From contig CP060262.1 in assembly GCA_022646745.1 (NCBI GenBank), positions 2,340,001-2,372,000 on the forward strand: DNA of 32,000 nt, written 5' to 3'. A model generated the notes under the pieces. The model was not told the DNA's origin and made no database searches. It worked only from the letters and a program-made list of their open reading frames with translations. Each line of letters starts with the position of its first letter. Position 1 is the first letter of the stretch. Positions 9,543-29,925 of this stretch are shown here, one piece after another. The translations under genes and the position numbers were made by a program. This DNA is from Planctomycetales bacterium (lineage in GTDB: Bacteria > 4484-113 > JAFGCY01).

Positions 9543-10985
<1,443 letters not shown>

Positions 10986-11117
10986 GTGACTATTTTAAGG
11001 CAGAGTCTGGACTGCAATTCAAGGCTTAAACCCACTGCAAACCTGTACAGCAGTCCACAAACGTGTTGGTGCCGCAGTTATATCCCTCGCAGCATACATG
11101 CTTGCAGAGGAGTCAAC

Positions 11118-11882: not shown

Positions 11883-11898
11883 CCTGCTAAGCAACCGG

Positions 11899-11933
11899 CG
11901 GCCGGCCATGGAGGGCCGGCCGTTTGCTTTTCT
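11899..11933 (+). terminator. Intrinsic terminator after beta-CA copy 1
   Basis: A 9-bp GC stem, CGGCCGGCC (11899-11907) pairing with GGCCGGCCG (11914-11922), closes a 6-nt loop. It is followed by TTTGCTTTTCT (11923-11933). Confidence 0.7.
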
Positions 11934-12003
11934 GGGGAGGCTTGTTGACTATTGCAGTCCTGCCGGATAATGTTGCTTCCCAATCGCACCTGCAGGAAAG
12001 AAA

Positions 12004-12750: not shown

Positions 12751-12798
12751 TCCGAACACAAGCTACGTTGGTTCCGGCCTTGGACAGTCTGCAATGGT

Positions 12799-12829
12799 CT
12801 GACCACTGACGACTGACCACTGACTACTG
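12799..12829. repeat. Short tandem repeat, a 14-nt unit present about 2.2 times
   Basis: CTGACCACTGACGA (12799-12812), then CTGACCACTGACTA (12813-12826), then CTG. It lies in the spacer between beta-CA copies 2 and 3. Confidence 0.6.
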
Positions 12830-12846
12830 TTCTATACTCTTCACCG

Positions 12847-13551: not shown

Positions 13552-13658
13552 GGCAGGCCGGACAAGAGTCAGGCCATCTGGGAACTGACAGCAGGTTTAG
13601 GGCCAGCCCGGCCTACACCTCAGTTTGCCGCAGGAACACAAGGCCTGTACCATGCTCC

Positions 13659-15485
13659 TTATTCCCTCAGCCACTCCAGTACATTGCAGAGCATGTCGCA
13701 GCGCAGGGTCGGCTCCCCCGTGTTGTCAGGATCCTGCAGGATCTCGACCTCCGTCCAGGCATAGCCGATCACCCAGCAGCGCGCCGTGCCGCTGGAGCTC
13801 AGGTCGCAGAATGGCGGATAACCGTTGAATCTGCAGGGTGCGGTGGTGCAGCCCCAGCTCACGAGTGCGCTGACATGCCCAGGATCCTCAGGGTAGGGTG
13901 AGAAGAACAGGCCGGGCTGGAATCCAGGTGCCGCACACATCCCGCCTAGGCCCTCACGTGGCATGATGCTGGAATTCCAGGCCCGTGTGCTGAACTGCGC
14001 ATCTGCGGGAACGCGGATCGCCCATGGTACGCGCCCGCCCGCACCGGCGTAACGCTCACCGTCATCACGGCCCATGCCGTCGTCAAACTCCGGGTCGGTC
14101 TGGAATGAGCCGACGAGGCTGACGGTCGACACGGGCAGGCTGATCCCGGTTGCCAGCAAGGGGTCGGGCCAATAGGGCAGGCCGACGGCGTCGGTGAACT
14201 CCAGATCGTTGCCAGGCAGCACCTGCGTTACGGGCTCGAAGCCCAGTTCCTGCCAGCTCAGGCCCTTGCTGACCCCCATGTTCTGGCTCATCACGAGCAT
14301 GTTCATCCCGCTTTCCAGCAGGGCCATCACGTCGGTCTGCTCAGCATACCCCCAGCTGTTGTAAGCGAGGCTGCGGTTCGGTCCGCCGCGCCCCCCGCAG
14401 TACCAGACCACGCTGTCGTAGCCACCCTCCAGCAGGGTGCTGCTCAGGCCCGGTTCATAGAGGAACCAGTCAAAGTCTGCACCGATGCGCTGCAGGTCGA
14501 ATCTCACAGCGATGTAGCCGATGTAATCGCTGGCATCGCCATTGTTGACGAGCGCCAGCCGGCCTCCGGAATAGACGGGGCGTGGCAGATCAGGAAACAG
14601 GTCCCCGAAGTAGATCATGTGAAAGCTTTCGAGATCCTTTGAATAGCAGAAGCTGTTGATATCCCAGGAGATTTCGCCGAGCACCCCATTCACCGAGTCG
14701 TAGGACTGGACTCTGTAGTCATACCAGCCCGGCAGTTCCGGCTCATCGCGGAATTCGAAGCGCAGCGGCTCAGCCCCACCGCCGCTGCCCTCGCTGAGCA
14801 GCATGCTGTGCTGCGCGGAATCCGCCCCCGGCAGGAAATCCGGCAGGAAGGTCTTGTCCTGCGGTCCCTGGCGGAAGACGCGGTAGCCATCGAGCCTGTC
14901 ACCGAAGTTGGCGGCGATCGGCGTGAGGTCCGCCAGGTTGAGAAGGCCGTTGCCATCTCCGTCAATCTGGGCCAGCCTGCGGTTGAGCGCCGGATCAGCC
15001 ACACTGTCATCCGGGACCGTGGCGTGGCCCTCGCGTGTGGAGATCCGTGTGTATTGCACGGTGGAATTGAAGTACTGTCCGAGCGGCGTGATGTCGGCGA
15101 TGTCTACGACGCCGTTGAGATCGTAATCCCCGGGGTGCCGGAAGGACCAGCTCAGATTGATTCCCTGCGGTGGTGCTCCTCCCTCGCCGTCGGGATCGTC
15201 AAGTTCCGCGAGTACGTCATACACTCCGCTGCCGGAGTACAGTGAGTAGTCTGCGGCACTCGTGGCCTCCCGCTCCTGCAGGCGCGCAAGCTCCAGCAGC
15301 AGTGCCATTTCCAGTTCCGGGTAATCCGTGACGAATCGCCGCTTCTCTGCGGGGCGGACGGCGTGAGTTTGCCCGGATGACGAGGAGCAGGCGCCGGCAG
15401 TGGACAGCAGTAGCAGAGCCATGATCAGCATGAGTCCAGTACCAGTCGTAACATATCTGTTGGCTTGCTGATGGGATCGTTTCAT
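13659..15485 (-). CDS. Lipoprotein, family B paralog 1: dockerin-like double Ca-loop module plus a shared C-terminal domain
   Basis: The ORF is open to 15572. The ATG at 15485 gives MKRSHQQANRYVTTGTGLMLIMALLLLSTAGA-C, a lipobox; an alternative ATG lies at 15506. Two EF-hand-like loops are present, GDYDLNGVVDIADITPLGQYF and DGDGNGLLNLADLTPIAANFG, followed by LDGYRVFR. The C-terminal domain shares VVWYCGGRGGP, MNMLVMSQN, SWGCTTAP and CWVIGYAWTEVEI with 17977-19845. Confidence 0.8.
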   Translation of the reverse strand: MKRSHQQANRYVTTGTGLMLIMALLLLSTAGACSSSSGQTHAVRPAEKRRFVTDYPELEMALLLELARLQEREATSAADYSLYSGSGVYDVLAELDDPDGEGGAPPQGINLSWSFRHPGDYDLNGVVDIADITPLGQYFNSTVQYTRISTREGHATVPDDSVADPALNRRLAQIDGDGNGLLNLADLTPIAANFGDRLDGYRVFRQGPQDKTFLPDFLPGADSAQHSMLLSEGSGGGAEPLRFEFRDEPELPGWYDYRVQSYDSVNGVLGEISWDINSFCYSKDLESFHMIYFGDLFPDLPRPVYSGGRLALVNNGDASDYIGYIAVRFDLQRIGADFDWFLYEPGLSSTLLEGGYDSVVWYCGGRGGPNRSLAYNSWGYAEQTDVMALLESGMNMLVMSQNMGVSKGLSWQELGFEPVTQVLPGNDLEFTDAVGLPYWPDPLLATGISLPVSTVSLVGSFQTDPEFDDGMGRDDGERYAGAGGRVPWAIRVPADAQFSTRAWNSSIMPREGLGGMCAAPGFQPGLFFSPYPEDPGHVSALVSWGCTTAPCRFNGYPPFCDLSSSGTARCWVIGYAWTEVEILQDPDNTGEPTLRCDMLCNVLEWLRE

Positions 15486-15607
15486 CTGTTCAGTGATCTG
15501 CCGCATCAAGCAGATCATATCCGGAGTTTCGCCTGGGCAGACTGCACAATCGGCCTTCGATTCTGACTGCACACATCAATTGATCTAATTCACGATGTTG
15601 CTTGATA

Positions 15608-15635: not shown

Positions 15636-15683
15636 CTGCAGAGGCTGCTGTTCCAGAAGACGGTGGCCTGTGAAGGGGTTTCC

Positions 15684-17036
15684 ATGAAACTGAAAGGGCT
15701 GATCACGACAACTGCAGTGCTTGCAGCGCTGGCTTCCTCCTGTGGTGGAGGGGGCTCGGCACCACAGCAGGACCTGGACAATGAACTGCGTCAGGCGCTA
15801 AGCACCTACGGTGTCAGTGAGCTTGCAACGCTTCCAATGCATTCCGCCGAGAAGGTGGCCCTGGGCCGTGCACTGTTCTTCGACAAGCTGCTCAGTGGCA
15901 ACCGGGACATGTCCTGTGCCACCTGCCATGACCCCCGTGAAGCGGGCGGTGACGGACTCTCCCTGTCCGTCGGTGTCGGCGGCAGCGGGATCGGGCATGC
16001 GCGCACGCTTGGCGACGGGAAGGAATTCATCCCGCGCAATGCCCCGGAGATCTTCGAGCGCGGTGGTCCCGAGTTCACCAGCATGTTCTGGGACAGCCGG
16101 GTACATGAGGACGAGCAGGGCTTCCTGCACACCCCGGCGATGGGCATGCTGCCGCAGGGCCTGGACAGCGTACTGGCGGCACAGGCGATGTTCCCGGTCA
16201 CCTCACGCGCAGAGATGCGCGGCTTCGTCGGTGACAATGATGTGCTGGGCGACCCCAATGAACTTGCGCCCCTGGCTGACAACGACTTCCCCGGCATGTG
16301 GAGCAGCCTGATGGACCGTGTGATGGCTGTGGAGGAGTACCGCCACATGTTCGCCGCTGCCTATCCCGCTGTTGACGAGGCGGAATTCGGCTTCCAGCAC
16401 GCGGCGAATGCGATCGCCGCCTTCGAGGGTACCGGCTTCAGCTTCCGTGACACCCCGTTTGACAACTACCTCTCCGGTGACGACTCGGCGATGACCGACA
16501 CGCAGAAGGAGGGTGCGCTGCTGTTCTACGGTGCCGCAGGCTGCGCTCGCTGCCATACCGGCTCAGCGTTGACCGACCTGCAGCACTACAACTTCATGGT
16601 GCCGGCGCTCGGTCCCGGCAAGCAGGATGGCATCGACCCCGGCTTCGCCCTGACCAGCCACAATGATGCCGACCGCTTCTCCTTCCGCACCCCGCCGCTG
16701 CGCAATGTCGAGCTGACCGGTCCATGGATGCATGACGGCTCGTTCACTGACCTGCGCAGTGCGGTGAAGCATATGCTGGACTGCCAGGACAGTGTGCACA
16801 ACTACGACCCGCTGACACTCAAGTCTGATGTGCGCGAGACCCTCAACATGGACCAGGCGCTGATGGACGAGATGCTGGCAACGATCAGCCCGGCTGCCGC
16901 CGAGCGCCGCGAACTGACGGAGGCACAGATTGACCAGCTGATGGCATTCCTGCATGCCCTGACTGACCCGTCAGCGGCAACTGAGATGCCGGCCCTGCTG
17001 CCTGCCAGCGTACCGAGCGGCCTGCCGGTGGATTAG
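15684..17036 (+). CDS. Di-haem cytochrome c peroxidase / MauG-family protein, lipoprotein-type signal
   Basis: The ATG at 15684 follows GAAGGGG; the GTG at 15663 is rejected. The leader is MKLKGLITTTAVLAALASS-C. There are two CxxCH haem motifs (CATCH and CARCH), and the family block FRTPPLRNVELTGPWMHDGSF is present. Confidence 0.92.
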   Translation: MKLKGLITTTAVLAALASSCGGGGSAPQQDLDNELRQALSTYGVSELATLPMHSAEKVALGRALFFDKLLSGNRDMSCATCHDPREAGGDGLSLSVGVGGSGIGHARTLGDGKEFIPRNAPEIFERGGPEFTSMFWDSRVHEDEQGFLHTPAMGMLPQGLDSVLAAQAMFPVTSRAEMRGFVGDNDVLGDPNELAPLADNDFPGMWSSLMDRVMAVEEYRHMFAAAYPAVDEAEFGFQHAANAIAAFEGTGFSFRDTPFDNYLSGDDSAMTDTQKEGALLFYGAAGCARCHTGSALTDLQHYNFMVPALGPGKQDGIDPGFALTSHNDADRFSFRTPPLRNVELTGPWMHDGSFTDLRSAVKHMLDCQDSVHNYDPLTLKSDVRETLNMDQALMDEMLATISPAAAERRELTEAQIDQLMAFLHALTDPSAATEMPALLPASVPSGLPVD

Positions 17037-17140: not shown

Positions 17141-17845
17141 CTACAGCTTCGCCAGCTCATCGCGCAGCAGCCTGATGTTCAGCAGGCGCTGGCCGACGTC
17201 ATAGCTGCCAAGGATACCCAGCACGGCGAATGCCATCACATATGGCGTGAGCTGGGCCCAGGCGGTCAGCACGCTGGCATTGCCTCCGAACAGTCCGGTC
17301 TGGTACAGCACGAAGCCCAGCATTGCCAGCATCATCGCGAAGCTTGCCATGCTGGCCAGCCAGCGCATGCGCAGCAGGTGCCGTGGTTCCGCCAGGTACC
17401 AGTCCAGCTCTGAAGCGTACAGCCGCACCCAGTCCTTCAGTGACACTGGTGCTGGCCCGAGGAACAGGATCCAGGGCCAGGCAACGTACCGCCTGATGTC
17501 TGGCAGCTGCCCGTGGCCGATGGCAACCCTGTGGATGAAGTCGCTTTGATCCATGCGCTGCTGGATGCGCTCGCGATATGTCCGGCTGCGCCATTCCATG
17601 CACGCGAGCAAGGCGATACACAGTACCGTCCAGCCGATGAACTGCAGCGGGGGGAACTGCATTGCATTGCCCCCGGAGGCTGCGAAGTTGCCAGTGACGA
17701 TCATCACCAACCCGATCATGTACATCATCCCGCTGATCATGCGCGGGCTGTAGCCGGAACGCTGCTCCAGCATCCGGTTGAGTTCTGCCAGCAGCTGCTC
17801 ACTGTATCCGCCTCCCGAAAGTCCGGCATCCGCCTGACCGGCCAT
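17141..17845 (-). CDS. Polytopic membrane protein, family C paralog A
   Basis: The ORF is open to a GTG at 17917, but that codon directly abuts a terminator U-tract. The ATG at 17845 has GGAGGTG 4 nt upstream and gives 234 aa. It is paralogous to 20190-20900 (YRERIQQRM against YREKLRDKV; SELDWYLAEPRHLLRMRWL against SHLDWYLGKPDRVIRIEWL). Confidence 0.65.
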   Translation of the reverse strand: MAGQADAGLSGGGYSEQLLAELNRMLEQRSGYSPRMISGMMYMIGLVMIVTGNFAASGGNAMQFPPLQFIGWTVLCIALLACMEWRSRTYRERIQQRMDQSDFIHRVAIGHGQLPDIRRYVAWPWILFLGPAPVSLKDWVRLYASELDWYLAEPRHLLRMRWLASMASFAMMLAMLGFVLYQTGLFGGNASVLTAWAQLTPYVMAFAVLGILGSYDVGQRLLNIRLLRDELAKL

Positions 17846-17922
17846 GCTGCACCTCCATGCACAACTGTTGTACATCCTGCAGGCCTTGGCGGTTTCGTCG
17901 GCAAGGGTGGACTGCACAAATG

Positions 17923-17976: not shown

Positions 17977-19845
17977 CTACTGCATCAACCAGGCCATCGT
18001 GTTGAGCAGCAGCTCGGCACGGACCATGCCTGAGGGGCTGCCGGACGGGTCGTCCTTGATCTCGACGTCATTCCAGGCATAGCCGATCACCCAGAACCGG
18101 GCACTGCCGAAGTCGTCAAGGTTGTATGACGGGAAGAAACCCATGTTGAAATATGGAGCAGTTGTGCATCCCCAGCTGGTGAAAGCCGATGCAATTCCCT
18201 CGGTCAGCGGCGGATCAAGTGTATCCAGCGGGAAGAAGCCCAGGCCTGTGCGGAAGCCGGCGCCGGCGGCGCTGCCACCGAAGAACCCGTCGAAGTAGCC
18301 GATGGACATGAACTGCGTATCATCCGGCAGGCTGATCTGCCAGGCAGCCTGCCCCGAACTGTCAGTGCCGGTGAAGAACTCACCATCGCCACTTCCGGTG
18401 CCGTTCGAATCCATCGAAACTCTGTTGGAATCAATCCTGCCAACCACGCTGAATGGCGCTGTCGGGAAGTAGCCGACACTGCCACCGAAGCCTACGCCGT
18501 CATCCTCGGCCAGGCCGCTCATCCAGACGAACCAGCGGTCAGCAAGTGTGAGCGTATTTGCGCCGACTACGCTGTAATCGGGGTGGTAATCCCAGGAGTT
18601 GATGAAGAAGCAGTCGCCCATCTGGTGGTTCTGGCTCAGCAGCAGCAGGTCGCCGTCCCCTGTCAGGATATCGCGGATGTTTTCCATTTCCGCTTCAGCC
18701 CAGACGCTCTCCTGCAGGTCAGTCTCGCTGCCGCCGGGGCCGCCGCGGTACCAGATCGCCAGGTCGTAGTCGCCGGTGAGGAAGTAGTCGTCAACGCCGT
18801 CGTAATAGTCAACTTCCTCGTAGTCCGTGCTCAGGTCGTCAAGGTCGGAGACGATCGCATCGTAGTTGGCATTGAAGCTGTCACCGTCGTCGCGCACCAG
18901 CAGCACCTTGCCACCGAAGTCCGGCAGCGGGTTGGGATTCGGGTCCGGGTCGGGGTCTGGATCGGGGTCCGGATCCGGGTTCGGGTCGGGATCAGGATCC
19001 GGAGCCGGCGGCGGGGCGAATTCCAGCGCCGGGTCATCGCCGGGGCCACAGCCCGGGCCGTCGCCGCCATGTGCATGGCTGCTGCTGCCTTCACTGCCGC
19101 TGCCAAAGCCGGCGAGGAAATAATCGTAGCCACCATCCACACTGACCGGGTCGTCAAACTGGAAGTGCACCACGCTGCTTCCGCCGCCCAGCGCCTCGCC
19201 GCGGCCGATCGTGTATGGCAGCCCGCCGTCCTGCGGGTTGGCAAGCATGCTGAATGAATCCTCGCCCGGAGCCTTGCGGTAGATGCGGTAGCCCTCCAGC
19301 TTCTCGCCGAAATGCTGGGCGATCACGGACACATCCGCCAGGTTGATCTCACCGTTGCCATCGCCGTCCACGCGGGCCAGCCTGTGGTTCTCGCTGTCGC
19401 TGTCCCCTGACGGGATGTCGGCTATGCCATCGTTGTCAGCCGCCGGAAGGTAGTCCACGCTCTTCAGGTAGTTCTGCCCGAGTGCGGTCAGGTCACTGAC
19501 CGCCACCTCGCCGTTCTGGTCGAAGTCACCGGCCAACCGCTCAGTCCAGCTGAGCCGGATATAGCTCTGCGCACCTTCCGGATCCATCTGCTCCACCCGC
19601 AGGTCGTTCACGGAGTTGCGCTCGCCAGTCGGTGCACTGGCTGCCACCTTGTCCGGGTCGATCCCCAGCCTGGCGAACTCAGCATCAAGTGCTGCGGCCA
19701 GTTGTTCACTGTCCGGCACGGACAATTCATTATTGCCAGTGCCAATTGCGGAGATATCCTGTTGAGTTCCGCTGCCAGCGCAGCCAAACAGGAAAAGTGC
19801 GCCAAACCCGATCAGTGCAATTCGGGTGTACTTCCCATGTCCCAT
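17977..19845 (-). CDS. Lipoprotein, family B paralog 2: dockerin-like module, (Pro-Asp/Asn)12 linker, shared C-terminal domain
   Basis: The ATG at 19845 is preceded by AGGAGGA; the ORF extension to 19998 is rejected. The leader is MGHGKYTRIALIGFGALFLFG-C. The Ca-loops are GDFDQNGEVAVSDLTALGQNY and DGDGNGEINLADVSVIAQHFG, followed by LEGYRIYR. The C-terminal domain (KVLLVRDDGDS, AIWYRGGPGGS, DLLLLSQNH, SWGCTTAP, FWVIGYAWNDVEI) is paralogous to 13659-15485. Confidence 0.85.
   Translation of the reverse strand: MGHGKYTRIALIGFGALFLFGCAGSGTQQDISAIGTGNNELSVPDSEQLAAALDAEFARLGIDPDKVAASAPTGERNSVNDLRVEQMDPEGAQSYIRLSWTERLAGDFDQNGEVAVSDLTALGQNYLKSVDYLPAADNDGIADIPSGDSDSENHRLARVDGDGNGEINLADVSVIAQHFGEKLEGYRIYRKAPGEDSFSMLANPQDGGLPYTIGRGEALGGGSSVVHFQFDDPVSVDGGYDYFLAGFGSGSEGSSSHAHGGDGPGCGPGDDPALEFAPPPAPDPDPDPNPDPDPDPDPDPDPNPNPLPDFGGKVLLVRDDGDSFNANYDAIVSDLDDLSTDYEEVDYYDGVDDYFLTGDYDLAIWYRGGPGGSETDLQESVWAEAEMENIRDILTGDGDLLLLSQNHQMGDCFFINSWDYHPDYSVVGANTLTLADRWFVWMSGLAEDDGVGFGGSVGYFPTAPFSVVGRIDSNRVSMDSNGTGSGDGEFFTGTDSSGQAAWQISLPDDTQFMSIGYFDGFFGGSAAGAGFRTGLGFFPLDTLDPPLTEGIASAFTSWGCTTAPYFNMGFFPSYNLDDFGSARFWVIGYAWNDVEIKDDPSGSPSGMVRAELLLNTMAWLMQ
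18931..19002 (-). repeat. Hexanucleotide repeat encoding 12 Pro-Asp/Pro-Asn dipeptides, a linker
   Basis: The plus strand reads GTTGGG ATTCGG GTCCGG GTCGGG GTCTGG ATCGGG GTCCGG ATCCGG GTTCGG GTCGGG ATCAGG ATCCGG. The translation is PDPDPDPNPDPDPDPDPDPDPNPN, inside CDS 17977-19845. Confidence 0.9.
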
Positions 19846-20109
19846 AAGTATCCTCCTGTGCCGGGGATGAGCCCCGGCCAGTTCGCAGCCGGTAGAACTG
19901 CTCCCCAGAATGTAACAGGATTCAGGATTCTCCAAAAGGCACAATCCTGCCGAAATCAGGGGAAACAGTCGTGCTGAGGATACACCTGCGACGAGCATTG
20001 TGTAGTTTTTCCGAAATCCCAGGAAATCACTTCACAAAGTGTTACCTGCACAAGTCAGCGGAAAGCTGTCCATGTACAACTGGACTCAACGCAGCTAACA
20101 GCATGGTGC

Positions 20110-20180
20110 TCAGTCCAGTTCGTCTTCGCCAGCCCTTGGCCGGTATGCCTTTCCTTCGAGGTCGGCCCGGGCAAAGCGGC
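20110..20180 (-). pseudogene. Orphan, diverged copy of the last ~23 codons plus stop of the gamma-CA-like gene
   Basis: 20110-20178 aligns codon for codon with 21048-21116, matching at 52 of 69 nt by hand count. The translation is ...RFARADLEGKAYRPRAGEDELD*, against ...RIARAYMEGKTYRPGVNEDELD* in the intact gene. No upstream coding continuation exists, because the stop of 20190-20900 lies about 10 nt away. Confidence 0.6.
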
Positions 20181-20189
20181 AGGGCCAAA

Positions 20190-20900
20190 CTAGTTGTCCT
20201 GAATCACAGACAACAGTTCGTTGAGGTTCACTTCATTACGGCAGCGGACCAGTTGTTCGCCTGAAAAGGCAAGCGTAAAGAAAGTGATTACAAGCAGATA
20301 ATAATGTTTAAAAATCCAACTCTGTTGAATCACTTCATTGCCAAACTGGTGTCGAACAACTGTGATAACCAGAGCAACCAACCCCAACTCCAGCATTGCC
20401 AGGATACACAGCAGCCACTCAATGCGAATAACCCTGTCAGGCTTGCCAAGATACCAATCCAGATGTGACACAACATATCGGAGCCATTGGTCTTCGTTCT
20501 TTGGTCGGAATCCGAGTATGAAGCGCATTGGCAGTGGGACGTAGTCGTGGACCATGGGTAAGGAATTGGGCCAGGCAAGAAGTTCCAGAGCGGTTTCTTT
20601 GTTGAGGACTTTGTCCCGAAGCTTTTCGCGATAAGCTGGCGTGAAATAGACAGACATGAAACCCATCGCCAGGCAGCAAGCCAGCCAACAGACTATGGGA
20701 ATATAAGGTAAGAGTCCTGGTTGGGGCTTGGGCGACCGTAAGCTTTCAGACGTATAGAAAATGAAGAAATATCCTGTGCCTCCCATGGCGTTCCATGCCA
20801 GAAAGCCAGAAGGATTTGCAAAGTACCTGTATCCCTTGGTGCGGAGATCATTAAGCTTGCCGGATAGCGCTACATTCCTGAATACTTGGATTCCTTCCAT
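20190..20900 (-). CDS. Polytopic membrane protein, family C paralog B, in a lower-GC segment
   Basis: The ATG at 20900 gives 236 aa, colinear with paralog A (234 aa). The ORF-track start at 20948 is a TTG. The sequence is visibly more AT-rich than its neighbours (for example AAAGTGATTACAAGCAGATAATAATGTTTAAAAATCC). Confidence 0.6.
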   Translation of the reverse strand: MEGIQVFRNVALSGKLNDLRTKGYRYFANPSGFLAWNAMGGTGYFFIFYTSESLRSPKPQPGLLPYIPIVCWLACCLAMGFMSVYFTPAYREKLRDKVLNKETALELLAWPNSLPMVHDYVPLPMRFILGFRPKNEDQWLRYVVSHLDWYLGKPDRVIRIEWLLCILAMLELGLVALVITVVRHQFGNEVIQQSWIFKHYYLLVITFFTLAFSGEQLVRCRNEVNLNELLSVIQDN

Positions 20901-21047
20901 CAAATGTCGCCTTGATTGCGTTGAATTGTAACTGCACTGCAATAACAATGACTATCGCAATCATTACTTTACATCAGGCTAACTGAGCCGATTCCACGCT
21001 GGCACGGATGTTGCCATACCTTCTATAGCACGGCTCAATTCGGAATG

Positions 21048-21674
21048 TCAGTCCAGCTCGTCCTCATTTACGCCAGGCCGGTAGGTCTTGCCTTCCATGT
21101 AGGCCCGGGCAATGCGCCGGTACTTGCGCGCAAAGGGCGTACCTGCCAGTCCGCGCAGCTCCTCCGGGATGTCAGCGGCATTTGCAATCGCCTCGCGTGC
21201 CCCGATCTTGACCAGTGTGCGCTCCGTCACTTCGCCCTTGACCTGTGCCGGGATGCCGACCGCCACGCTAAGCGGCGGAATCACCGCCCCCTCGCCGACC
21301 ACCGCGCCGGCCGCGATGATGCTGCCGCGCCCGATGTGTGCGCCGTTGAGCACCCTGGCACCCATCCCGATCAGGCAGCCGTCCTCCACCGTGCAGCCGT
21401 GCAGGATCGCGCTGTGCCCAACGGTCACGTAGCGGCCGATGATGCAGGGGTGCACATCCGCCACATGCAGCATCACGAGGTCCTGGATATTGCTGCCGAA
21501 GCCGATCTCCACGTGGTTCACGTCTCCGCGGATCACGCTGTTGAACAGCACGGTGCAGTTCTGCGCAATGGAAACGTCACCTGTCACCACCGCACCGGGG
21601 GCGAGCCATGCACTCTCGTGGATCTGCGGGCTGTACTTGCCATAGGGGAGGACTGTTGCTGAATTCACGGCCAT
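21048..21674 (-). CDS. Gamma-carbonic-anhydrase-like / left-handed beta-helix (hexapeptide repeat) protein, YrdA/PaaY-type
   Basis: 208 aa. PQIHESAWLAPGAVVTGDVSIAQNCTVLFNSVIRGDVNHVEIG... and ...GHSAILHGCTVEDGCLIGMGARVLNGAHIGRGSIIAAGAVV are the typical gamma-CA-family hexapeptide turns with conserved His residues. There is a C-terminal extension of about 45 aa. Confidence 0.9.
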   Translation of the reverse strand: MAVNSATVLPYGKYSPQIHESAWLAPGAVVTGDVSIAQNCTVLFNSVIRGDVNHVEIGFGSNIQDLVMLHVADVHPCIIGRYVTVGHSAILHGCTVEDGCLIGMGARVLNGAHIGRGSIIAAGAVVGEGAVIPPLSVAVGIPAQVKGEVTERTLVKIGAREAIANAADIPEELRGLAGTPFARKYRRIARAYMEGKTYRPGVNEDELD

Positions 21675-21851
21675 ACTTTACTACATCGGGAGCTGGGATC
21701 TGGATTGTGGGTTGTAGCAGGCGAGGATCTGGGAACTCGAGTGTAGGGTGTAGCAGAAGGGAATCAGAGTGCCCGGAGCGCGACGGGTAATCTATGGTCA
21801 TGCCGCAGGCATGACACCAGCCCTACACCCCAGGTCCCGTGTCCTAAGTCC

Positions 21852-22589
21852 TCAGTCTCCCAGTGGCCACTGCGGGCCGAACATCGCCTCGAACTGCTCG
21901 ACTGCGGCCCGGCCGCCGAGTGCGAGGATCTCAAAGAATCGCGCCCGGTCGCGCTCACGGTAGTCCAGCCGGCGTACGTTGAAGCCGGTCAAGTTGGCAC
22001 CGCTGCGCCGGCCCGTCGCCACCGCGAGGTAGTAGTCCAGCGCATTGGCAACACTGCCGCTGTCCGTCCAGTCGCTGGAGTACTGCGGCCGCCCGGCCCG
22101 GTTGAAGATCCAGGTCATGTTCGGCATCGAGCCGAAGTACTGGTGGCAGTGCCCCTGCAATGTGTCAACGAGGATCGGGCGCCCGCTGCCGATGCGATCC
22201 GTCATCAGCCGGGCCTGGGCCAGCTTCTGCTCGAAGCTCGTATGATGCGGGATCAGCTCACCGGGGTGCGCTTCATTCGTGTAGATGAAGTAGCTGCCGA
22301 CTTCCCGCGGGTTGTATTGCTGCGCCACTTCGTTCATCGATGGACCCGCCATCGTGCAGTAGGGTCAAGTGACGCTGCCGAACTCGAACACCGTCAGCAG
22401 GTGCCTGCGGCAGACCTCCTGCATGGAGACCTGCTCTCCCGTTGCCAGCATTGTCAGCTGGAAATCCGCTACCAGGCTGCCCGGTGGCGGGGACTGCTCG
22501 AAGCGCATCAGCGGCTCAAAGCCCTCCGCAGCAAACACCGCGTAGTTGTACTCCGCCAGCAGCTCAGGTCCCTTGAAGTGTGCAGTCAT
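21852..22589 (-). CDS. Probable selenoprotein: thioredoxin-fold, iodothyronine-deiodinase-like protein with an in-frame TGA (Sec75) in a U-P-Y-C motif
   Basis: ORFs 22365-22670 and 21852-22352 share one frame and are separated only by TGA (minus-strand codon 22367-22365) and four sense codons. Read-through gives ...PPGSLVADFQLTMLATGEQVSMQEVCRRHLLTVFEFGSVT-U-PYCTMAGPSMNEVAQQYNPREVGSYFIYTNEAHPGE...RPILVDTLQ.... The preferred start is the ATG at 22589 (MTAHFKGPELL...), giving 245 aa; the ATG at 22670 is an alternative. A hairpin lies 11-27 nt after the TGA. Confidence 0.7.
22338..22354 (-). promoter_or_regulatory. Candidate bacterial SECIS hairpin
   Basis: The mRNA reads UGA CCCUACUGCA CGAUGG-CGGGU-CCAUCG. 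This is a 6-bp stem starting 11 nt after UGA, with a G/U-containing pentaloop 17-21 nt after UGA. A further 4-bp helix (CUGC/GCAG) could close a larger structure. Confidence 0.45.
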
Positions 22590-22720
22590 TCCAGCCTCAC
22601 TACAACTATAGCGGAGTGCCACGCGGCACCTGCCTGGCTGCTGATTCGGACGTTTGGTGTTAAGATGCATTTAATCCGCCTTGCCCGTCCTGGACCGGGC
22701 AGATTCACCAGGAGCTGCCC

Positions 22721-24376
22721 ATGCCCGCAAGATTGACTGCTGCATTGCTATTGACCATGCTGGCCTTGCTGGCTTCCTGCTCATCCTCAGGCTCACCGGC
22801 CCCACCTGCGCCCAAGCCTGAGTTTCCGACCCAGGACCTTCTGCCGCAGGTGAATGAACTGGATTCCCTGCATTCCACATCCAGCCTGAACCGCACGGTG
22901 ATCCTCGGCAAGGACACCTACGTACGCTCCAGCGGCTGCACCGAGCAGCCAGGCGGTGAACTGCTGATGGAGTCCGCGGCGGGCTCGGTCTGCTGGGCGA
23001 TCTGGCAGCTGCCGGACGAGCCGGAATTCCTTGACTCGGTGTTCTTCGACATCATTGACGCGCTGGGCGAGGGCGGCTACCTCGGCGTTGCCAACTTCAG
23101 CGAGGGGCGCTGGGACTTCAGCGGTCCCTATACTGACCAGACCACGCTTGAGTTTGCACCGGACTGGCAGGCATCACCGGGCGGCTTCCACTACTTCGCG
23201 GCCCTCGTGCATGACGGGGCTGCCATCGAGATGGCGCAGCTGCTGTGCTATTTCAACGATGGCTGGCAGGTGGTGGTTGTCTCGGCGATGCATGAGGCGG
23301 GTGTCAACTCTTCAATTGCCAACATCGACGGGCATCCCGCGATCGCCTACCGCCGCAATGAGGACGAGGCCCTGCGCTATGCATGGAGCTCAACGGAGAC
23401 GGGTGCGGAAGGTGATGACTGGACGGACATTTCCATTCCGGCCCTGTTTACGGCGGGGCTGTACTGCAGCCTGGCGGATGTCAACGGGCGCCCGGCGATC
23501 AGCTTCCGCGGCGAGACGGACAACTTTGGGTACGAACTGCACTACGCGATCAGCAACAACTCCAGCGGCAGTGCCTCCGGCAACTGGAATGTAATCGTGC
23601 TTGATCCGACGGAGGATGTCGGCTACCACACCAGCCTCGCCATGATCAATGGCCGCCCGGCAATTGCGTACAGCACACAGGCCGGGCAGGATCTGTTCTA
23701 CATGCGCAGTGCAAGCCTGTACGGCGATGCGCTGGAGGACTGGTCAGTGCCCGTGGAGGTGGACCATGATGGTGCCGGTGATCTCGGCGCTGACTGCAGC
23801 CTGGCGGAGGTGGATGGCCGTCCCGCCGTCAGCTACTTCGCCAATGGCACGCTGCGCTACAGCTGGAGCAGCACGGCATCAGGAGAGTCGGGTGCCGACT
23901 GGAACATCCGCGTGATTGACAACGAATCCGCCAGCAATGTCGGCTTCTACTCCAGCCTGGCGGTGATCAACGGCAAGCCCGCGATCAGCTACTACGACCA
24001 GCTGCATGCCGACCTCAAGTTCGCCTGGAGCAGCACCGCCGGAGGGCAGATTGCCGCTGACTGGAACACTATGGAAATCAGCGGCCCGCCGATCGCCGGC
24101 CAGTACAGCAACCTGGTGGAACTGGACGGGCAGCCGGCGGTCTGCTATTACACCGTTGGAGTGCTCAGGGACCTGTTGTTCGACCAGGCGGTCCCGGCGG
24201 CAATCCCTGAGGAATGGTCCTGGGGGCCCTACGTGACCGTGGATGGCAATGATGGCCTGATGCCGGCTGATGTCGGACGCAACTGCAGCATGGCGGTTGT
24301 CAACGGCCGGCCCGTGATCTCATACTATGACGCGACCAGTGAGAGCCTGAAGTACGCAGTGCGCGTGCTGCCCTAG
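22721..24376 (+). CDS. Lipoprotein, family A paralog 3: shared N-terminal module plus a very regular 7-bladed propeller
   Basis: AGGAG lies 7 nt before the ATG, and the leader carries the lipobox LLAS-C. The module motif is YLGVANFSEGRWDF. Seven clear repeats follow: IANIDGHPAIAYRR..LRYAWSS; LADVNGRPAISFRG..LHYAISN; LAMINGRPAIAYST..LFYMRSA; LAEVDGRPAVSYFA..LRYSWSS; LAVINGKPAISYYD..LKFAWSS; LVELDGQPAVCYYT; MAVVNGRPVISYYD..LKYAVRV. Confidence 0.87.
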   Translation: MPARLTAALLLTMLALLASCSSSGSPAPPAPKPEFPTQDLLPQVNELDSLHSTSSLNRTVILGKDTYVRSSGCTEQPGGELLMESAAGSVCWAIWQLPDEPEFLDSVFFDIIDALGEGGYLGVANFSEGRWDFSGPYTDQTTLEFAPDWQASPGGFHYFAALVHDGAAIEMAQLLCYFNDGWQVVVVSAMHEAGVNSSIANIDGHPAIAYRRNEDEALRYAWSSTETGAEGDDWTDISIPALFTAGLYCSLADVNGRPAISFRGETDNFGYELHYAISNNSSGSASGNWNVIVLDPTEDVGYHTSLAMINGRPAIAYSTQAGQDLFYMRSASLYGDALEDWSVPVEVDHDGAGDLGADCSLAEVDGRPAVSYFANGTLRYSWSSTASGESGADWNIRVIDNESASNVGFYSSLAVINGKPAISYYDQLHADLKFAWSSTAGGQIAADWNTMEISGPPIAGQYSNLVELDGQPAVCYYTVGVLRDLLFDQAVPAAIPEEWSWGPYVTVDGNDGLMPADVGRNCSMAVVNGRPVISYYDATSESLKYAVRVLP

Positions 24377-26541: not shown

Positions 26542-26792
26542 TTCACACTCCTGACTACAGGCCTCCTTGGAGGTCCCGCTTCACTCATGTGAGTCTCGCA
26601 ACTCGGTGAGCACTCAATTCAATGGTGTCCCGGTCCTGTGGCAGGCTCCGGGCACCACGGGATTATACCAGTCCAGTGTCATTAATATCCTCGCCGGAAG
26701 TGTCCCTCGACAATCCCTTTCCTGCGGTGTTAAGATCTGGTAAACCCGCAATATTCTGTTTTTCACCATGAAGTAAATCCGGAAGGTGCCAG

Positions 26793-29700
26793 ATGTTGAA
26801 GCACTTTCTTCCTGCTGAACGCCTTGGCAGAATCAGCACTGTCCTGCTGCTGACCGGCTTGCTGTCCGGATGCGGCCCCCAGGGAAGCGCGGATAGCCCT
26901 GCCAGCCTGCCGGAAGTGACGGCTCCTGCTGCAGGTCTAAAGCCTGCCGCAACCGGCCGGTCCGTCAAGCTGGTATCTCTTCCCCCGCGGATCACACCCG
27001 CAGCCGACCTTGCTGCACTGCGGGCCGAGGCCGAGGCCCTGCCTGTACCTGCCGGGGTTGACCCCCAGCTGTTCGGCGAGTTGCGCGAGGCAATGCTGGC
27101 TGCCGTTGGGCAGGACGCCGCCCGCAGCGTTTCAAAGCTGCCGAGCGGGGAGGGCAACCTCGTCAGCGACCTGCACCTCGAGGAGCAGGGCAGTAGAGGC
27201 ACCCTCGGCTGGACATATGTGAACATCGGGGACTACGACCTCAATGGCGAGGTCGGCATCTCGGACATCACGCCGATCGGCATCCACTTCAACAAGTCTG
27301 AGGCCTCCAGCGACTGGGACAGCGCGCGAGTGGCGGACGGCGATGGCAACGGCCTCGTCAGCATCTCCGACATCACTCCGCTCGGCGTGCACTTCGGTGC
27401 CTCCGTGCAGGGCTACAACATCTACGGCCGGCTGTCCGGCGGCAGTGGCTACAGCCTGCTTGGCAGCGTGCCCGTGGCCAGTGGCAGCGGCACACCGAAG
27501 CAACTGCAGTTCCCGCTGGCGAGCATTGACTACGACATCTACATGGTTGCGCCCTACGATTCCTTCGGTGAGGACATGCCGCAGCAGGAACTGCTGAACC
27601 CGATGGCGCTGCCGCTGGACCCGGCCGTCGTGCAGGTCGACTCATTCGACGATGACGGTGTGCTGCTTTCCGGCGATGTTGGCAACATCGAGGTCGGCAG
27701 CGTGATCGTCAGCACGGAGGGCCGTGGCCTGCTGCGCCGAGTGGAGGGCATCACACCAGTCGCCGGCGGGGCACAGCTGGCAACCAGCCAGGCAACGCTT
27801 GAGGACCTGTTCGACTATGTCAGCTTCGGCGACCAGCTGCAGTTCAGCTTCGATGACGTTGAATCATTCGAGCCCGAGATCGAGGGACTGACTTTCGAGG
27901 AGGACGACTCCGGCGCCGGGACATCCTCCGCCCGCTCCGGCAGCGCCAGCACAGGGATCATCAAGCTGTCGGTGTCCTACAAGCCGCATGACAACCTGCT
28001 GCTCAATGGCACGATCAGCATGGATGCCGGTGCGGACCTTGCCGTCGACATCGGCACGGGCTGGTCCGACTTCGGCCAGCTCAATACCTTCGAGTTCAAT
28101 GCATGGGCCGACGGCAAGATATCCGGCACGGTCAAGGCCCTGCGGGAATTCAAGCTGGCGGAGGGCAAGCTGAAGCTCGGCACCCTGCATCTGGCACCGG
28201 TCTGGATGCCTGCCGGACCGATCCCGGTCGTTGTCACTCCCGAGATCCAGGTCTGGCTGAAGTTCACCGGCAAGGGCGACGTGGCGATCCAGGCCACCAC
28301 CTCCGGCACCGCCCATGTCAGTGTGGCAACGAAGTATGACCGTTTGCGCAGCTGGTCAGCGGACTTTGACAGCGACCTGCAGTGGGGCGAATCACCGGCG
28401 CCGGTGCTATCCGGCACGATCACGGGTGAATTCAGCATCTTCGGCCCGGAGATGGACCTGTTCATCTACGGTGTGATCGGGCCATACCTGCACCTCGAGC
28501 TGCCCTATGCCAGCGTGTCAGCAAGCATCAATGACAAGTTCATCCCGCCGGACAGCTTCGACTACAGCCTGACCATCGGCGCCAGCTTCGGCGCACGCGG
28601 TTCAGTCGGGGTTGAAGTCGCAGCGCTCAGCGGCACGATTGCCCGCTTCGACACCGGAAACATCCTCAACGTCAGCAAGCCGCTCTACAGTGCGACCTAT
28701 CCCCTGAGCGGTGCAAGTGTAAGTGGCAAGGTGCTCAGCGCTGTCCCGTACCTCACGGATGGCAACCAGGACCTCGGTGAGGACGAATACATCCTGCTGG
28801 ACTGGGTACCCGAGGCGCTCGTGGAATTCATGCAGGGCGGCAAGGTCGTTGCCAGCTGCCTGCACCAGAACAACAGTCCCAGCCTCAGGTACAGCTCCTA
28901 TTCACGCTTCCTCGCCCCCGGCACTTACCAGATAAGGGCCACGGCGGAGGGCTACTTGGAGGGCAAGGGCGAAGTCATAGTCACGGACAAGGTAGCGGCT
29001 TACAGCCAGAACATCTATGTCTATCCGCATGCGGATTCCGAATCCGTTGACATTTCCATCAGCAGCCCGGCCGCTGGACAGGTGATCCATGAACCGATGC
29101 TGGTGCTGGAAGGCGTGGCCACAGCTGGTGAGAAGCCCTTCGACGGACTGCTGCTGGACTTCCTGCCCGATAAAGCGGGAGGACTCTACGATGGTACGGG
29201 CAACTTCGGAGTTGGTGCGATCGAGCCGAATCCAGATGGCTCATTTGCGATTCCTGTGAAGCTGGATTCAGACGTGCAAAGCCTGCTGGTCGTGCCTTAC
29301 TACGAATTCTTTTTCGGACCGGGTGACTCACAGTCCCTGCTGGTTCCATTAAAGACCAACCTGCCGGACGGTTTCCCGCTTGATTGCGATTTTGAACCTG
29401 CTGCAATGCTGGGTGTACTTTCATGGAAACTCGACGCCGTCTACTCAGATGGCACGCAGGAGCCTGACATCCCGGGCGTGCCCAATGAGGATTTCCGCCT
29501 TGTGGTTATCGAGCCCGGGCATGCGCTAGTGGCTGGCCAGGAACAGGACGGACTGGGCTATATCAGGCAGGTTCCGGGGAGCTGGCACTGGTATTACTAC
29601 CTGCCGCAGTCAGCAGCCCAGAGTGGGGACATCATTTATCCCAAGGTGCACCTGCTTAGCTCTACACACGATGGAGGCCCGTTCAGTTACTCGGCGTATT

Positions 29701-29849
29701 TTCAGGTAAGTTTCTATTCTGAGGTATACACCTCATTGGATCATTACTTTGCAAGTGGCTCGCTCAAGAATGCTCAAGGGATAACGCCGATAGACCCATT
29801 TGGTACCGGATTCGACTGGTTATCGACACTGGGGCTGACTATCCCCTGA
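26793..29849 (+). CDS. Large (1018 aa) lipoprotein with the family B dockerin-like module, otherwise uncharacterised
   Basis: GGAAGGTG precedes the ATG, and the leader carries the lipobox LLSG-C. The Ca-loops are GDYDLNGEVGISDITPIGIHF and DGDGNGLVSISDITPLGVHFG, followed by VQGYNIYGR as in family B. A carboxypeptidase-regulatory-like stretch (ASVSGKVL...GTYQIRATAEGYLEGKGEVIV) is present. The remaining ~600 aa are beta-rich with no motif I recognise. Confidence 0.85.
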   Translation: MLKHFLPAERLGRISTVLLLTGLLSGCGPQGSADSPASLPEVTAPAAGLKPAATGRSVKLVSLPPRITPAADLAALRAEAEALPVPAGVDPQLFGELREAMLAAVGQDAARSVSKLPSGEGNLVSDLHLEEQGSRGTLGWTYVNIGDYDLNGEVGISDITPIGIHFNKSEASSDWDSARVADGDGNGLVSISDITPLGVHFGASVQGYNIYGRLSGGSGYSLLGSVPVASGSGTPKQLQFPLASIDYDIYMVAPYDSFGEDMPQQELLNPMALPLDPAVVQVDSFDDDGVLLSGDVGNIEVGSVIVSTEGRGLLRRVEGITPVAGGAQLATSQATLEDLFDYVSFGDQLQFSFDDVESFEPEIEGLTFEEDDSGAGTSSARSGSASTGIIKLSVSYKPHDNLLLNGTISMDAGADLAVDIGTGWSDFGQLNTFEFNAWADGKISGTVKALREFKLAEGKLKLGTLHLAPVWMPAGPIPVVVTPEIQVWLKFTGKGDVAIQATTSGTAHVSVATKYDRLRSWSADFDSDLQWGESPAPVLSGTITGEFSIFGPEMDLFIYGVIGPYLHLELPYASVSASINDKFIPPDSFDYSLTIGASFGARGSVGVEVAALSGTIARFDTGNILNVSKPLYSATYPLSGASVSGKVLSAVPYLTDGNQDLGEDEYILLDWVPEALVEFMQGGKVVASCLHQNNSPSLRYSSYSRFLAPGTYQIRATAEGYLEGKGEVIVTDKVAAYSQNIYVYPHADSESVDISISSPAAGQVIHEPMLVLEGVATAGEKPFDGLLLDFLPDKAGGLYDGTGNFGVGAIEPNPDGSFAIPVKLDSDVQSLLVVPYYEFFFGPGDSQSLLVPLKTNLPDGFPLDCDFEPAAMLGVLSWKLDAVYSDGTQEPDIPGVPNEDFRLVVIEPGHALVAGQEQDGLGYIRQVPGSWHWYYYLPQSAAQSGDIIYPKVHLLSSTHDGGPFSYSAYFQVSFYSEVYTSLDHYFASGSLKNAQGITPIDPFGTGFDWLSTLGLTIP

Positions 29850-29925
29850 TTCCATGTAGCGGGCTTCCCGCACCCGACTTGCAGCGCACTGTATAATTGG
29901 GCGAACTTTCCTCTTCGGAAACCCC

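Follow-up and report, generated by a model that had tools for sequence, protein, structure and literature searches.

A predicted deiodinase-like selenoprotein gene with an in-frame UGA and a conserved SECIS-like hairpin, annotated in relatives as two hypothetical proteins

The window analyzed here, a stretch of 32,000 nucleotides taken at its full length, contained on its minus strand a reading frame at 22589..21852 with one internal TGA. The evidence set out below makes it highly probable that this is a single gene, encoding a cytoplasmic thioredoxin-fold selenoprotein of about 27 kDa that belongs to the prokaryotic deiodinase-like family. The features of the locus were as follows.

21852..22589 (-): complete coding sequence of the predicted deiodinase-like selenoprotein, 245 codons including Sec75, with a terminal TGA stop at 21854..21852
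22595..22598 (-): putative Shine-Dalgarno sequence GAGG, read from the sequence, 5 nt 5' of the ATG at 22589..22587
22365..22367 (-): in-frame UGA, predicted Sec codon U75 (conservation, DIO2/DIO3 alignment, P0009 model)
22355..22364 (-): 10-nt spacer CCCUACUGCA from the UGA to the hairpin, coding for P76-Y77-C78 (Cys78 is the TGC at 22358..22356)
22338..22354 (-): SECIS-like hairpin, CGAUGG / loop CGGGU / CCAUCG (covariation, RNAalifold, codon entropy)
22263..22274 (-): codons of E106-A107-H108-P109, the deiodinase-type 'EAHP', invariant and aligned with DIO2/DIO3
22143..22148 (-): codons of C148-H149, with Cys in 83/84 sequences
22365..22589 (-): N-terminal 74-aa fragment as delimited by gene callers, e.g., KDL29_01610 'hypothetical protein'
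21852..22352 (-): C-terminal fragment as delimited by the ORF tool; gene callers mostly use the ATG at 22337, giving 161–162 aa, e.g., KDL29_01615

The ORF at 22670/22589..22365 (-) closed with the TGA at 22367..22365, and the ORF at 22352..21852 (-) shared its frame, with exactly four sense codons (CCC TAC TGC ACG, 22364..22353) between the two. This confirmed both the coordinates and the read-through of the first-pass annotation, which had described two ORFs in one frame separated by a TGA and four sense codons. The read-through product was ...LLTVFEFGSVT-*-PYCTMAGPSMNEV...YFIYTNEAHPGE...RPILVDT..., in which the catalytic motif is FGSVT-U-PYC. The start codon is likely the ATG at 22589..22587, with the GAGG 5 nt upstream; gene calls in relatives used the equivalent start (74-aa ORFs), and sequence conservation began about 10 residues past it. 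Two further ATGs occurred 4 and 9 codons downstream of the TGA. The adjacency of the two ORFs was not in itself proof of a single gene, because about 70 same-frame ORF pairs split by one TGA occurred in the window (61% GC), nearly all of them in non-coding frames. It was the homology and conservation across the TGA that went beyond chance.

Matches obtained with tblastn crossed the TGA in 80 genomes, covering query residues 1–245 or 9–238. The N-terminal 66 residues had a mean column identity of 69% (78 genomes), and dN/dS against three related loci (L006–L008) was 0.14–0.20 for the N-terminal part and 0.16–0.22 for the C-terminal part. By these comparative measures, the halves on either side of the TGA are both coding and under purifying selection, and together constitute one conserved coding unit, in line with the earlier proposal that the two ORFs are one gene. 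The number of C-terminal fragment rows in the alignment was kept low, since MAFFT misaligned the N-terminal fragments when many such rows were present (A4, A7).

When the protein was searched with Cys in place of U, T4_deiodinase (PF00837) was the top Pfam match at 31.0 bits (E 2e-7), above the gathering score of 27 by a margin of only 4 bits, with residues 66–164 aligned to profile positions 105–210 of 237. Matches below threshold were found to AhpC-TSA (23.5 bits, cut-off 26), Redoxin (21.1, cut-off 26.6) and Thioredoxin (11.7, cut-off 23.5). Homologues with Cys scored 29–56 bits on PF00837, and the distant ones among them passed the thresholds of the Prx models as well as of the DIO model. 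Among NCBIfam models, NF038285 scored best but, with 36.5 bits, stayed below its cut-off of 250, and no model there covered the clade. Searching the PDB with phmmer returned DIO2 and DIO3 as the best sequence matches, with the UGA column opposite the residue changed from Sec to Cys in mouse DIO2 (9h48) and DIO3 (4tr3). The first-pass annotation had placed the UGA at the β1/α1 catalytic position within a UxxC motif, which agrees with this alignment, and had noted a deiodinase likeness (FGSxTUP, ...EAHP, ...LVDT), which the DIO3 alignment upheld.

Residues S72, T74, U75, Y103, E106, and H108 aligned with residues of DIO, in which the Ser, Thr, Sec, Tyr, Glu, His, and a second His have proposed catalytic or proton-relay roles (PMC11592359). 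The EAHP motif was invariant in three alignments (A1, A3, and A5) and paired with the EAHP of DIO2 and DIO3, at the edge of DIO loop-D, where the proposed proton-relay Glu and His are located. The second DIO His paired with the variable position 116 (H/L), one residue off the near-invariant H115. C148 was a third conserved Cys of redox type, adjacent to the invariant H149. The protein also has a C-terminal helical extension of about 70 residues. The N-terminus (MTAHFKGPELLAEYNY...) was hydrophilic, and the sequence had neither a signal peptide nor a membrane anchor.

Structural comparison was based on an AF2 model of P0009, a full-length relative 49% identical to the window protein; a first AF2 model had been set aside, as its N-terminus was unmodelled (pLDDT 62). 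The P0009 model (pLDDT 80.9) showed the TlpA/Prx/DIO variety of the thioredoxin fold, in which residue 71, equivalent to U75, sits between strand 61–67 and helix 72–91. Among the 50 Foldseek matches listed, DIO3 (4tr3) had the highest query-normalized TM-score (0.57), whereas the best E-values belonged to ResA-type CxxC oxidoreductases (8e-10; target-normalized TM-score 0.84).

Deiodinase-like proteins with PF00837 and UxxC are an established prokaryotic selenoprotein family (PMC1088965, PMC9312934, PMC13188914), with bacterial UxxC members described from the Sargasso Sea by Zhang, Fomenko & Gladyshev in 2005 (PMC1088965), again from the GOS data in 2008, and in reviews of 2022 and 2026. The window protein shares with that family a PF00837 match above threshold, a UGA at the DIO Sec column, the UxxC motif, a bacterial-type hairpin with a loop G, Cys homologues, and a function presumed to be redox; the comparison with the published representatives AACY01143874, MBO99264.1, and MFL2763324.1 was by family description. 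In contrast to the published marine family, the present clade was found mainly in Chloroflexota and in UBP7 MAGs (from wastewater, groundwater, and similar sources), is almost exclusively Sec, and carries the helical C-terminal extension and the invariant Cys148-His149. The gene is a further member of a family type known since 2005, and therefore overturns nothing.

Similarity to the animal deiodinases DIO1–3 extended to the thioredoxin/Prx-like core, the FGS-x-T-U-P strand and turn with its Sec nucleophile, the Y..EAHP motif followed by a P-H..S.E.K segment, and the hydrophobic ...LVDT... strand, at an identity of about 18–25%. However, the window protein lacks the N-terminal membrane anchor of DIO1–3, has UPYC with a vicinal Cys instead of UPPF, carries the extra C-terminal helical region, and has a candidate bacterial in-frame SECIS, compared to a 3'-UTR SECIS in DIO. 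Against DIO3, there was a 9-residue gap between EAHP and IPxH, and the center of the loop-D omega-loop, with SDGW and its Trp, was absent. Proteins of the TlpA/ResA/DsbE type (B. subtilis ResA; 1su9, 2h1g) share the fold, the redox pair at the β1–α1 junction, and an N-terminal β-hairpin extension, but they are secreted or membrane-anchored and Cys-based, and the EAHP motif is missing in ResA; the window protein, for its part, has neither signal peptide nor anchor and falls below the Thioredoxin, Redoxin, and AhpC-TSA thresholds. The Sec Prx-like/Redoxin UxxC proteins (PF00578, PF08534) have the UxxC motif and the thioredoxin/Prx-like fold in common with it, and it has the sub-threshold AhpC-TSA and Redoxin matches. 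Nevertheless, PF00837 was its best model, and the peroxiredoxin motif PxxxTxxC(U) was absent, VFEFGSVTU having Thr at -1 and Ser at -3 and no Pro at -7. Taken at the sequence level, these comparisons assign the window protein to the deiodinase-like family.

As a working choice, a general reductase- or peroxidase-type role may be preferred for this enzyme over thyroid-hormone-like deiodination. It seems rather unlikely that the same Sec enzyme is a true reductive dehalogenase, removing iodine or bromine from halogenated phenolics as animal deiodinases do. Such an activity would fit T4_deiodinase being the best family match, the retention of the six DIO residues from S72 to H108, and the presence of a VCPO_2nd/DUF6851 lipoprotein gene (vanadium haloperoxidase-related) directly downstream, in convergent orientation, in three other UBP7 genomes. 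Yet this VCPO-like gene was missing from the window and from every Chloroflexota locus, the region equivalent to DIO loop-D is 9 residues shorter and lacks SDGW, and the UxxC motif, the ResA-like structural matches, and the sub-threshold Prx-family matches indicate a generic chemistry, either of the thiol-disulfide or of the peroxide kind. Clustering of the gene neighbors over 80 loci revealed no conserved partner, the top cluster being an antisense ORF artefact. More speculative still is the proposal that the whole Chloroflexota/UBP7 clade forms a distinct, near-exclusively Sec subfamily (UPYC, Cys148-His149, C-terminal helical domain) of bacterial reductive dehalogenases of halogenated phenolics. 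If it were true, the clade would be a free-living prokaryotic counterpart, and possibly the evolutionary source, of thyroid-hormone deiodination chemistry, and the UBP7 enzyme may be functionally linked to the neighboring vanadium-haloperoxidase-like lipoprotein. This large and well-conserved clade would offer a good entry point to the substrate of bacterial deiodinase-like enzymes.

A hairpin with a 6-bp stem and a 5-nt loop began 10 nt past the UGA, within the coding sequence, and its loop G was invariant across the family. Hairpin positions were paired in 95.8% of cells (78 sequences), and 18 cells, spread over 3 pairs, carried compensatory changes. In 500 shuffles the observed score was never reached, slid controls gave at most 51% pairing, and RNAalifold recovered the same helix. 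Synonymous codon entropy was 0.39 bits inside the hairpin versus 1.69 elsewhere, with hairpin codons nearly fixed (GCG 79/79, GGG 70/74, CCA 70/76). The residues M80 and S84 were replaced by L and A exactly where an A-U pair was replaced by C-G; Met80 and Ser84 thus change to Leu and Ala only jointly, because both codons base-pair. As judged from covariation and codon usage, the conserved hairpin, including the downstream ATGs, is under selection at the RNA level, and it provides a clear example of a putative SECIS inside a coding region constraining the protein sequence.

The hairpin is short, with a folding energy of -6.1 kcal/mol in the window sequence; the consensus reached -10.2 kcal/mol. 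When the 81 nt past the UGA were folded as a single sequence, the minimum free energy was no better than that of shuffles (z = 0.45), and a scan of the window against Rfam at the gathering threshold gave no match, and no SECIS. The hairpin is therefore visible only by cross-genome comparison, single-sequence folding carrying no signal. [quoted passage not shown]

Across the 84 related loci (mostly Chloroflexota, with the UBP7 lineage in addition), the UGA column was TGA 82 times and never TAA or TAG. The true terminal stops of the same 84 genes were mixed (TAG 39, TGA 27, TAA 18). The Cys78 column was Cys in all 84 sequences. Among the 31 distant full-length homologues that were fetched, most had FGSxT-C-P, with Cys at the UGA column (e.g., P0135, P0160, P0163, P0183, P0187, P0201, and P0204), and a few had Ser, Gly, or Ala. 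Such an exchange of Sec and Cys among homologues is the classic selenoprotein pattern. The same column thus holds TGA in close relatives and Cys in distant ones, the pairing that the first-pass annotation had looked to as evidence for Sec, and from this conservation the in-frame UGA is almost certainly a selenocysteine codon, as predicted.

It is very improbable that this TGA is a true stop and that the locus is either a gene that has been split or pseudogenized, or a pair of independent small genes of 74 and about 161 aa. Gene callers and NCBI do annotate two hypothetical proteins, ATGs are available shortly after the TGA, and searches of the sequence at hand (the window, the 81 loci, and about 1.26 Mb of flanks) yielded no Sec machinery. 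However, the break would interrupt one thioredoxin-fold domain midway, precisely at its catalytic residue, purifying selection acts on both halves, and full-length Cys homologues exist. The near-fixation of TGA in the column, with no TAA or TAG although the terminal stops are mixed, also argues against termination, and the downstream ATGs lie inside the hairpin under RNA-level selection.

Elsewhere in the window, TGA ended 9 of 20 well-defined genes, including those closing at 6006–6008, 9366–9368, and 12748–12750 and the Pfam-supported GatB, PanB, PanC, and a β-carbonic anhydrase; an internal in-frame TGA occurred in none of the 19 other genes. The genetic code of the window is accordingly standard, and TGA is a real stop for its other genes, as had been noted in the first-pass annotation. 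ARAGORN detected no tRNA-Sec in the window or in the 81 related loci, and no selA, selB, or selD was present among the 20 Pfam-annotated window ORFs. A tblastn search for selD over the flanks of related loci, about 1.26 Mb in total, was also negative, although the approximate E. coli SelD query makes this a weak negative. The Chloroflexi and Acidobacteria include Sec-decoding members (PMC1794560).

Translation of the UGA by means other than Sec, either through a reassigned code (Trp or Gly) or through hairpin-stimulated near-cognate suppression, is likewise very doubtful. Downstream RNA structures are able to stimulate read-through in general, and no Sec machinery was found in the window, the 81 loci, or the flanks. 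On the other hand, a reassigned code is at odds with the TGA stops of the other window genes and the lack of further internal TGAs, the homologue column is Cys, and the spacing and loop G of the hairpin fit a bacterial SECIS (PMC1088965). Finally, an error in sequencing or assembly that turned a TGC or TGT into this TGA, for which a single base change would suffice and which would mean the Cys form known from distant homologues, can practically be dismissed, since the exact window allele had TGA in 8/8 independent contigs from different samples and pipelines, as did relatives at 96–97% identity and the 82 of 84 loci. The first-pass annotation had named such an assembly error as a possible objection, against which these contigs speak; those of its suggested checks that were run all favored its interpretation. 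Code reassignment, pseudogene, and assembly error were therefore all rejected.

With the UGA at 22367..22365 read as selenocysteine, the hairpin would recruit SelB carrying Sec-tRNA(Sec), by analogy with the SECIS of E. coli fdhF, while the terminal TGA, which has no hairpin, would end translation. U75 would then lie at the N-terminus of helix α1, from where its selenolate may attack an oxidized or electrophilic substrate; the Ser, Thr, Tyr, Glu, and His of the proposed deiodinase proton relay are retained. Cys78 would be expected to resolve the intermediate, forming an intramolecular selenenylsulfide, and the enzyme would probably be regenerated by a thioredoxin-type reductant. Sec insertion itself and the resolving role of Cys78 are both what we infer from conservation and fold. 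If decoding machinery is confirmed there, the use of Sec would extend to the UBP7-like lineage.

The named public records of the clade that were encountered were all annotated as two hypothetical proteins, KDL29_01610/KDL29_01615 being one such pair, in keeping with the prediction of the first-pass annotation that standard gene callers would split the gene. A family-specific HMM combined with a Sec-aware rule would fix the annotation. The split was recurrent among the 258 matches to the clade in the GTDB species-representative collection, and a search with an N-terminal profile retrieved from metagenomes 1,684 clusters (90% identity) of N-terminal fragments. From this recurrent split (258 matches, >1,600 clusters), the clade appears to be an abundant component of the selenoproteome in Chloroflexota and some candidate phyla that current annotation leaves invisible. 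The best 120 of the 1,684 clusters were all fragments, about 69–99 aa in length and mostly 68–70 aa.

The minus-strand ORF ending at position 22365 was in frame with the ORF at 22352–21852, with only a TGA (22367–22365) and four sense codons between them, confirming the claim of the first-pass annotation that the two ORFs are one frame split by TGA. Read-through from the ATG at 22589 gave 245 codons (...LLTVFEFGSVT-U-PYC-TMAGPSMNEV...YFIYTNEAHPGE...RPILVDT...GHCHQYFGSMPNMTWIF...). This ATG had a GAGG 5 nt upstream, and gene callers chose the matching start in relatives. About 70 ORF pairs of the same type were listed in the window (61% GC) and such pairs are common by chance, so that ORF adjacency alone was no evidence. 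TGA is a normal stop in the window, as also claimed previously: it terminated 9 of 20 well-defined genes, including GatB, PanB, PanC, beta-carbonic anhydrase and the hexapeptide protein (all called Pfam-supported, PanB and PanC via synteny with L001, a related locus from another genome), and none of the other well-defined genes (20 checked) had an internal in-frame TGA.

When U was replaced by C, the read-through protein matched T4_deiodinase best in Pfam (31.0 bits; gathering score 27); AhpC-TSA (23.5) and Redoxin (21.1) came next, both sub-threshold. The top PDB sequence matches were the animal iodothyronine deiodinases (DIOs) mouse DIO2 (9h48) and DIO3 (4tr3), whose alignments both placed the UGA column at the Cys that replaces Sec in FGSATCP and FGSCTCP, in line with the deiodinase family proposed from the sequence. 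A search of 5.8 billion proteins revealed 323 relatives; nearly all those listed were fragments of 154–162 aa starting right after the TGA. The N-terminal part occurred separately as 68–74 aa ORFs, and its profile retrieved 1,684 clusters, the best 120 of which were all short fragments, mostly 68–70 aa. Both halves (KDL29_01610 and KDL29_01615) are labeled “hypothetical protein” at NCBI. When one genome per GTDB species was scanned, 258 relatives emerged, the closest being three UBP7-labeled MAGs (96–87% identity); most others were Chloroflexota, with a few labeled Armatimonadota, Acidobacteriota, Gemmatimonadota, Latescibacterota, Planctomycetales or Deinococcus. In 80 fetched loci, tblastn matches crossed the TGA (query residues 1–245 or 9–238). 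Within the UBP7 clade dN/dS was 0.14–0.20 upstream and 0.16–0.22 downstream of the TGA, placing both halves under purifying selection, and mean column identity was 69% for the 66 residues preceding the TGA (78 genomes). The locus is one gene, not two.

TGA occupied the Sec column in 82 of 84 loci, the remaining two being one sequence with TTA, within the conserved context EFGS-F/V-T-U-PYC-G/T-M/L-A-x-P-S/A-M-N. An ordinary stop was rejected, since no stop codon other than TGA stood at this column whereas the codons that actually terminate these genes were mixed (TAG 39, TGA 27, TAA 18). Assembly error was ruled out because the exact window allele kept its TGA in 8 of 8 contigs, which came from separate samples and different assemblers. 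Searching 1.84 billion representatives exhaustively with HMMER yielded 1,085 relatives. Among the distant full-length ones, Cys was the usual residue at the Sec column (for example in FGSITCPFC, FGSLTCPYC and FGSATCPMT) and a few had Ser, Gly or Ala instead, answering the earlier question of whether aligned homologues carry Cys or Sec. Sec/Cys exchange at one column is the usual signature of real selenoproteins, which these Cys forms fit; they scored 29–56 bits on PF00837, several also scoring above threshold for AhpC-TSA and Redoxin.

A hairpin (6-bp stem, 5-nt loop) was located 10 nt downstream of the UGA (CGAUGG-CGGGU-CCAUCG in the window, 22354–22338, minus strand; family consensus GGAUGG-CGGCG-CCAUCC); it came to light by cross-genome comparison. 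Single-sequence folding downstream of the UGA was uninformative, and no Rfam family matched in the window. Pairing held in 95.8% of cells (78 distinct sequences), and three pairs showed changes on both sides in 18 cells (G-C to C-G; G-C to A-U or U-A; A-U to C-G). In 500 column shuffles neither covariation nor pairing ever reached the real values, pairing fell to 27–51% when the partner was shifted by 1–3 columns, and RNAalifold independently predicted the same helix. The closing pair was C-G instead of G-C in the window’s clade, a clade-specific compensatory change indicating that the stem is maintained in that lineage too. Hairpin codons were near-fixed (Ala81 GCG 79/79; Gly79 GGG 70/74; Pro83 CCA 70/76), with a mean codon entropy of 0.39 bits vs. 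1.69 bits at 92 conserved codons of four- or six-fold degeneracy elsewhere, which shows RNA-level selection. Met80 (AUG) and Ser84 (UCC) changed as a pair to Leu (CUG) and Ala (GCC), an amino-acid covariation imposed by the hairpin. The hairpin was also compared with the SECIS of Escherichia coli fdhF. Its spacing and conserved loop G match the bacterial SECIS description (PMC1088965).

Within the close clade a single homologue, P0009, was called at full length (49% identical; L003:54-776 and L004:54-776, from one JGI and one Logan contig). It had TTA (Leu) at the Sec column, one base from the TGA of all others. Its hairpin was weakened (GGCUAG-CCGCC-CCGGCC), with an A-C mismatch and another base in place of the conserved G of the loop; this copy may have been inactivated or repurposed recently. 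According to record titles, homologues with TGA and hairpin occurred in MAGs labeled Planctomycetales, Deinococcus, Armatimonadota, Acidobacteriota, Gemmatimonadota and Latescibacterota (L008, L012, L018/L028, L038/L068, L058, and L060). Their identity to the window protein was ∼50–55%, the Chloroflexota range, except for the Planctomycetales-labeled L008 (78%); horizontal transfer, or short contigs assigned to the wrong bins, could explain this scatter.

P0009, with Leu at the Sec column, was modeled as a stand-in for the window protein, using N- and C-terminal fragments together in a correct alignment (pLDDT 80.9, pTM 0.76). The model had an N-terminal beta-hairpin, strand beta1 at residues 61–67, residue 71 (the Sec equivalent) N-capping helix 72–91, an otherwise thioredoxin/Prx-like core and a C-terminal helical extension (∼173–233). 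In Foldseek searches of the PDB, ResA-type CxxC oxidoreductases ranked first (E 8e-10), followed by DIO3 (4tr3; E 3e-8), whose query-normalized TM-score of 0.57 was the highest among the 50 matches listed, and Bcp-type peroxiredoxins. Conserved residues, numbered from the N-terminus MTAHF, were S72, T74, U75, C78, Y103, E106-A107-H108-P109, H115, R137, D142, and C148-H149; the S, T, Y, E, and H align with residues of the proposed DIO proton relay (PMC11592359). The U75 selenolate would act as the nucleophile, resolution would give a U75–C78 selenenylsulfide, and a thioredoxin-like reductant would recycle the enzyme.

Deiodinase-like selenoproteins of bacteria have been on record since a 2005 Sargasso Sea study (4 Sec sequences, 6 with Cys; PMC1088965); they turned up again in GOS (22 Sec sequences; PMC2398784) and appear in reviews as “Deiodinase-like protein, PF00837, UxxC” (PMC9312934, PMC13188914). 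Judged by the family description, the window gene agrees with this family in all testable features. Unlike animal DIOs, it lacks a membrane anchor, a full loop-D (the center is deleted, leaving a 9-residue gap) and a 3′-UTR SECIS, and its UPYC adds a vicinal Cys absent from DIOs. No NCBIfam model covering its clade was found. The earlier reading of a deiodinase-like gene with Sec at the UGA is supported. The gene joins an already described selenoprotein family as a new member that present annotations get wrong. The solid points are the clade size, the near-exclusive predicted use of Sec and the SECIS-imposed amino-acid covariation.

No Sec machinery genes were found in the window or related flanks; we infer Sec-decoding capacity for the UBP7-like organism. 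Sec users are known among Chloroflexi and Acidobacteria (PMC1794560). No gene neighbor was conserved across the family loci. In three other UBP7-type genomes, the selenoprotein gene is adjoined downstream by a convergent gene (L001:10705-12360, also L005, L006, and L007) for a lipoprotein of 551 aa that carries VCPO_2nd/DUF6851 domains and has vanadium haloperoxidases as relatives. The window lacks this ∼2 kb segment (corresponding junction 21685–21865), and the gene was absent from all Chloroflexota loci. It is suggestive that a haloperoxidase-like gene sits beside a deiodinase-like one, but the arrangement is not conserved. Directly downstream in the window (21048–21674) is a hexapeptide-repeat protein, a fold common to gamma-carbonic anhydrases and acyltransferases.

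Elsewhere in the window, a tandem array of three beta-carbonic-anhydrase paralogues (Pro_CA) and a nearby di-haem cytochrome c peroxidase (CCP_MauG) occupy 10932–13551 and 15663–17036. As listed, the first Pro_CA ORF shares ∼50 nt with the start of GatB (9543–10985, minus strand), and its real start is therefore probably later. The window and L001 (95–97% identical) differ by whole-gene insertions/deletions at 26692–29878, 19989–21048, and 13565–15567, the window ORFs of 1018, 252, and 637 aa being absent from L001 at the corresponding places; the pattern is mosaic, with large hypothetical genes that vary inside otherwise syntenic DNA. Three paralogous ORF sets had no significant Pfam domain:

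Paralogous ORF sets in the window
Set 1: 2264–3910, 4344–6008, 22721–24376; trio of ∼550 aa
Set 2: 13659–15572, 17977–19998, 26793–29849; 637, 673, and 1018 aa
Set 3: 17141–17917, 20190–20948; pair of 252 and 258 aa

Within set 1, h548 and h554 were 42% identical and h551 was more distant; its seven repeats of the type [ILV][NDG]G[RKQH]P[AVG][ILV] suggest a putative beta-propeller. Lipoprotein-like N-termini (a hydrophobic stretch, then Cys) were present in all three 550-aa proteins and in the 1018-aa protein.
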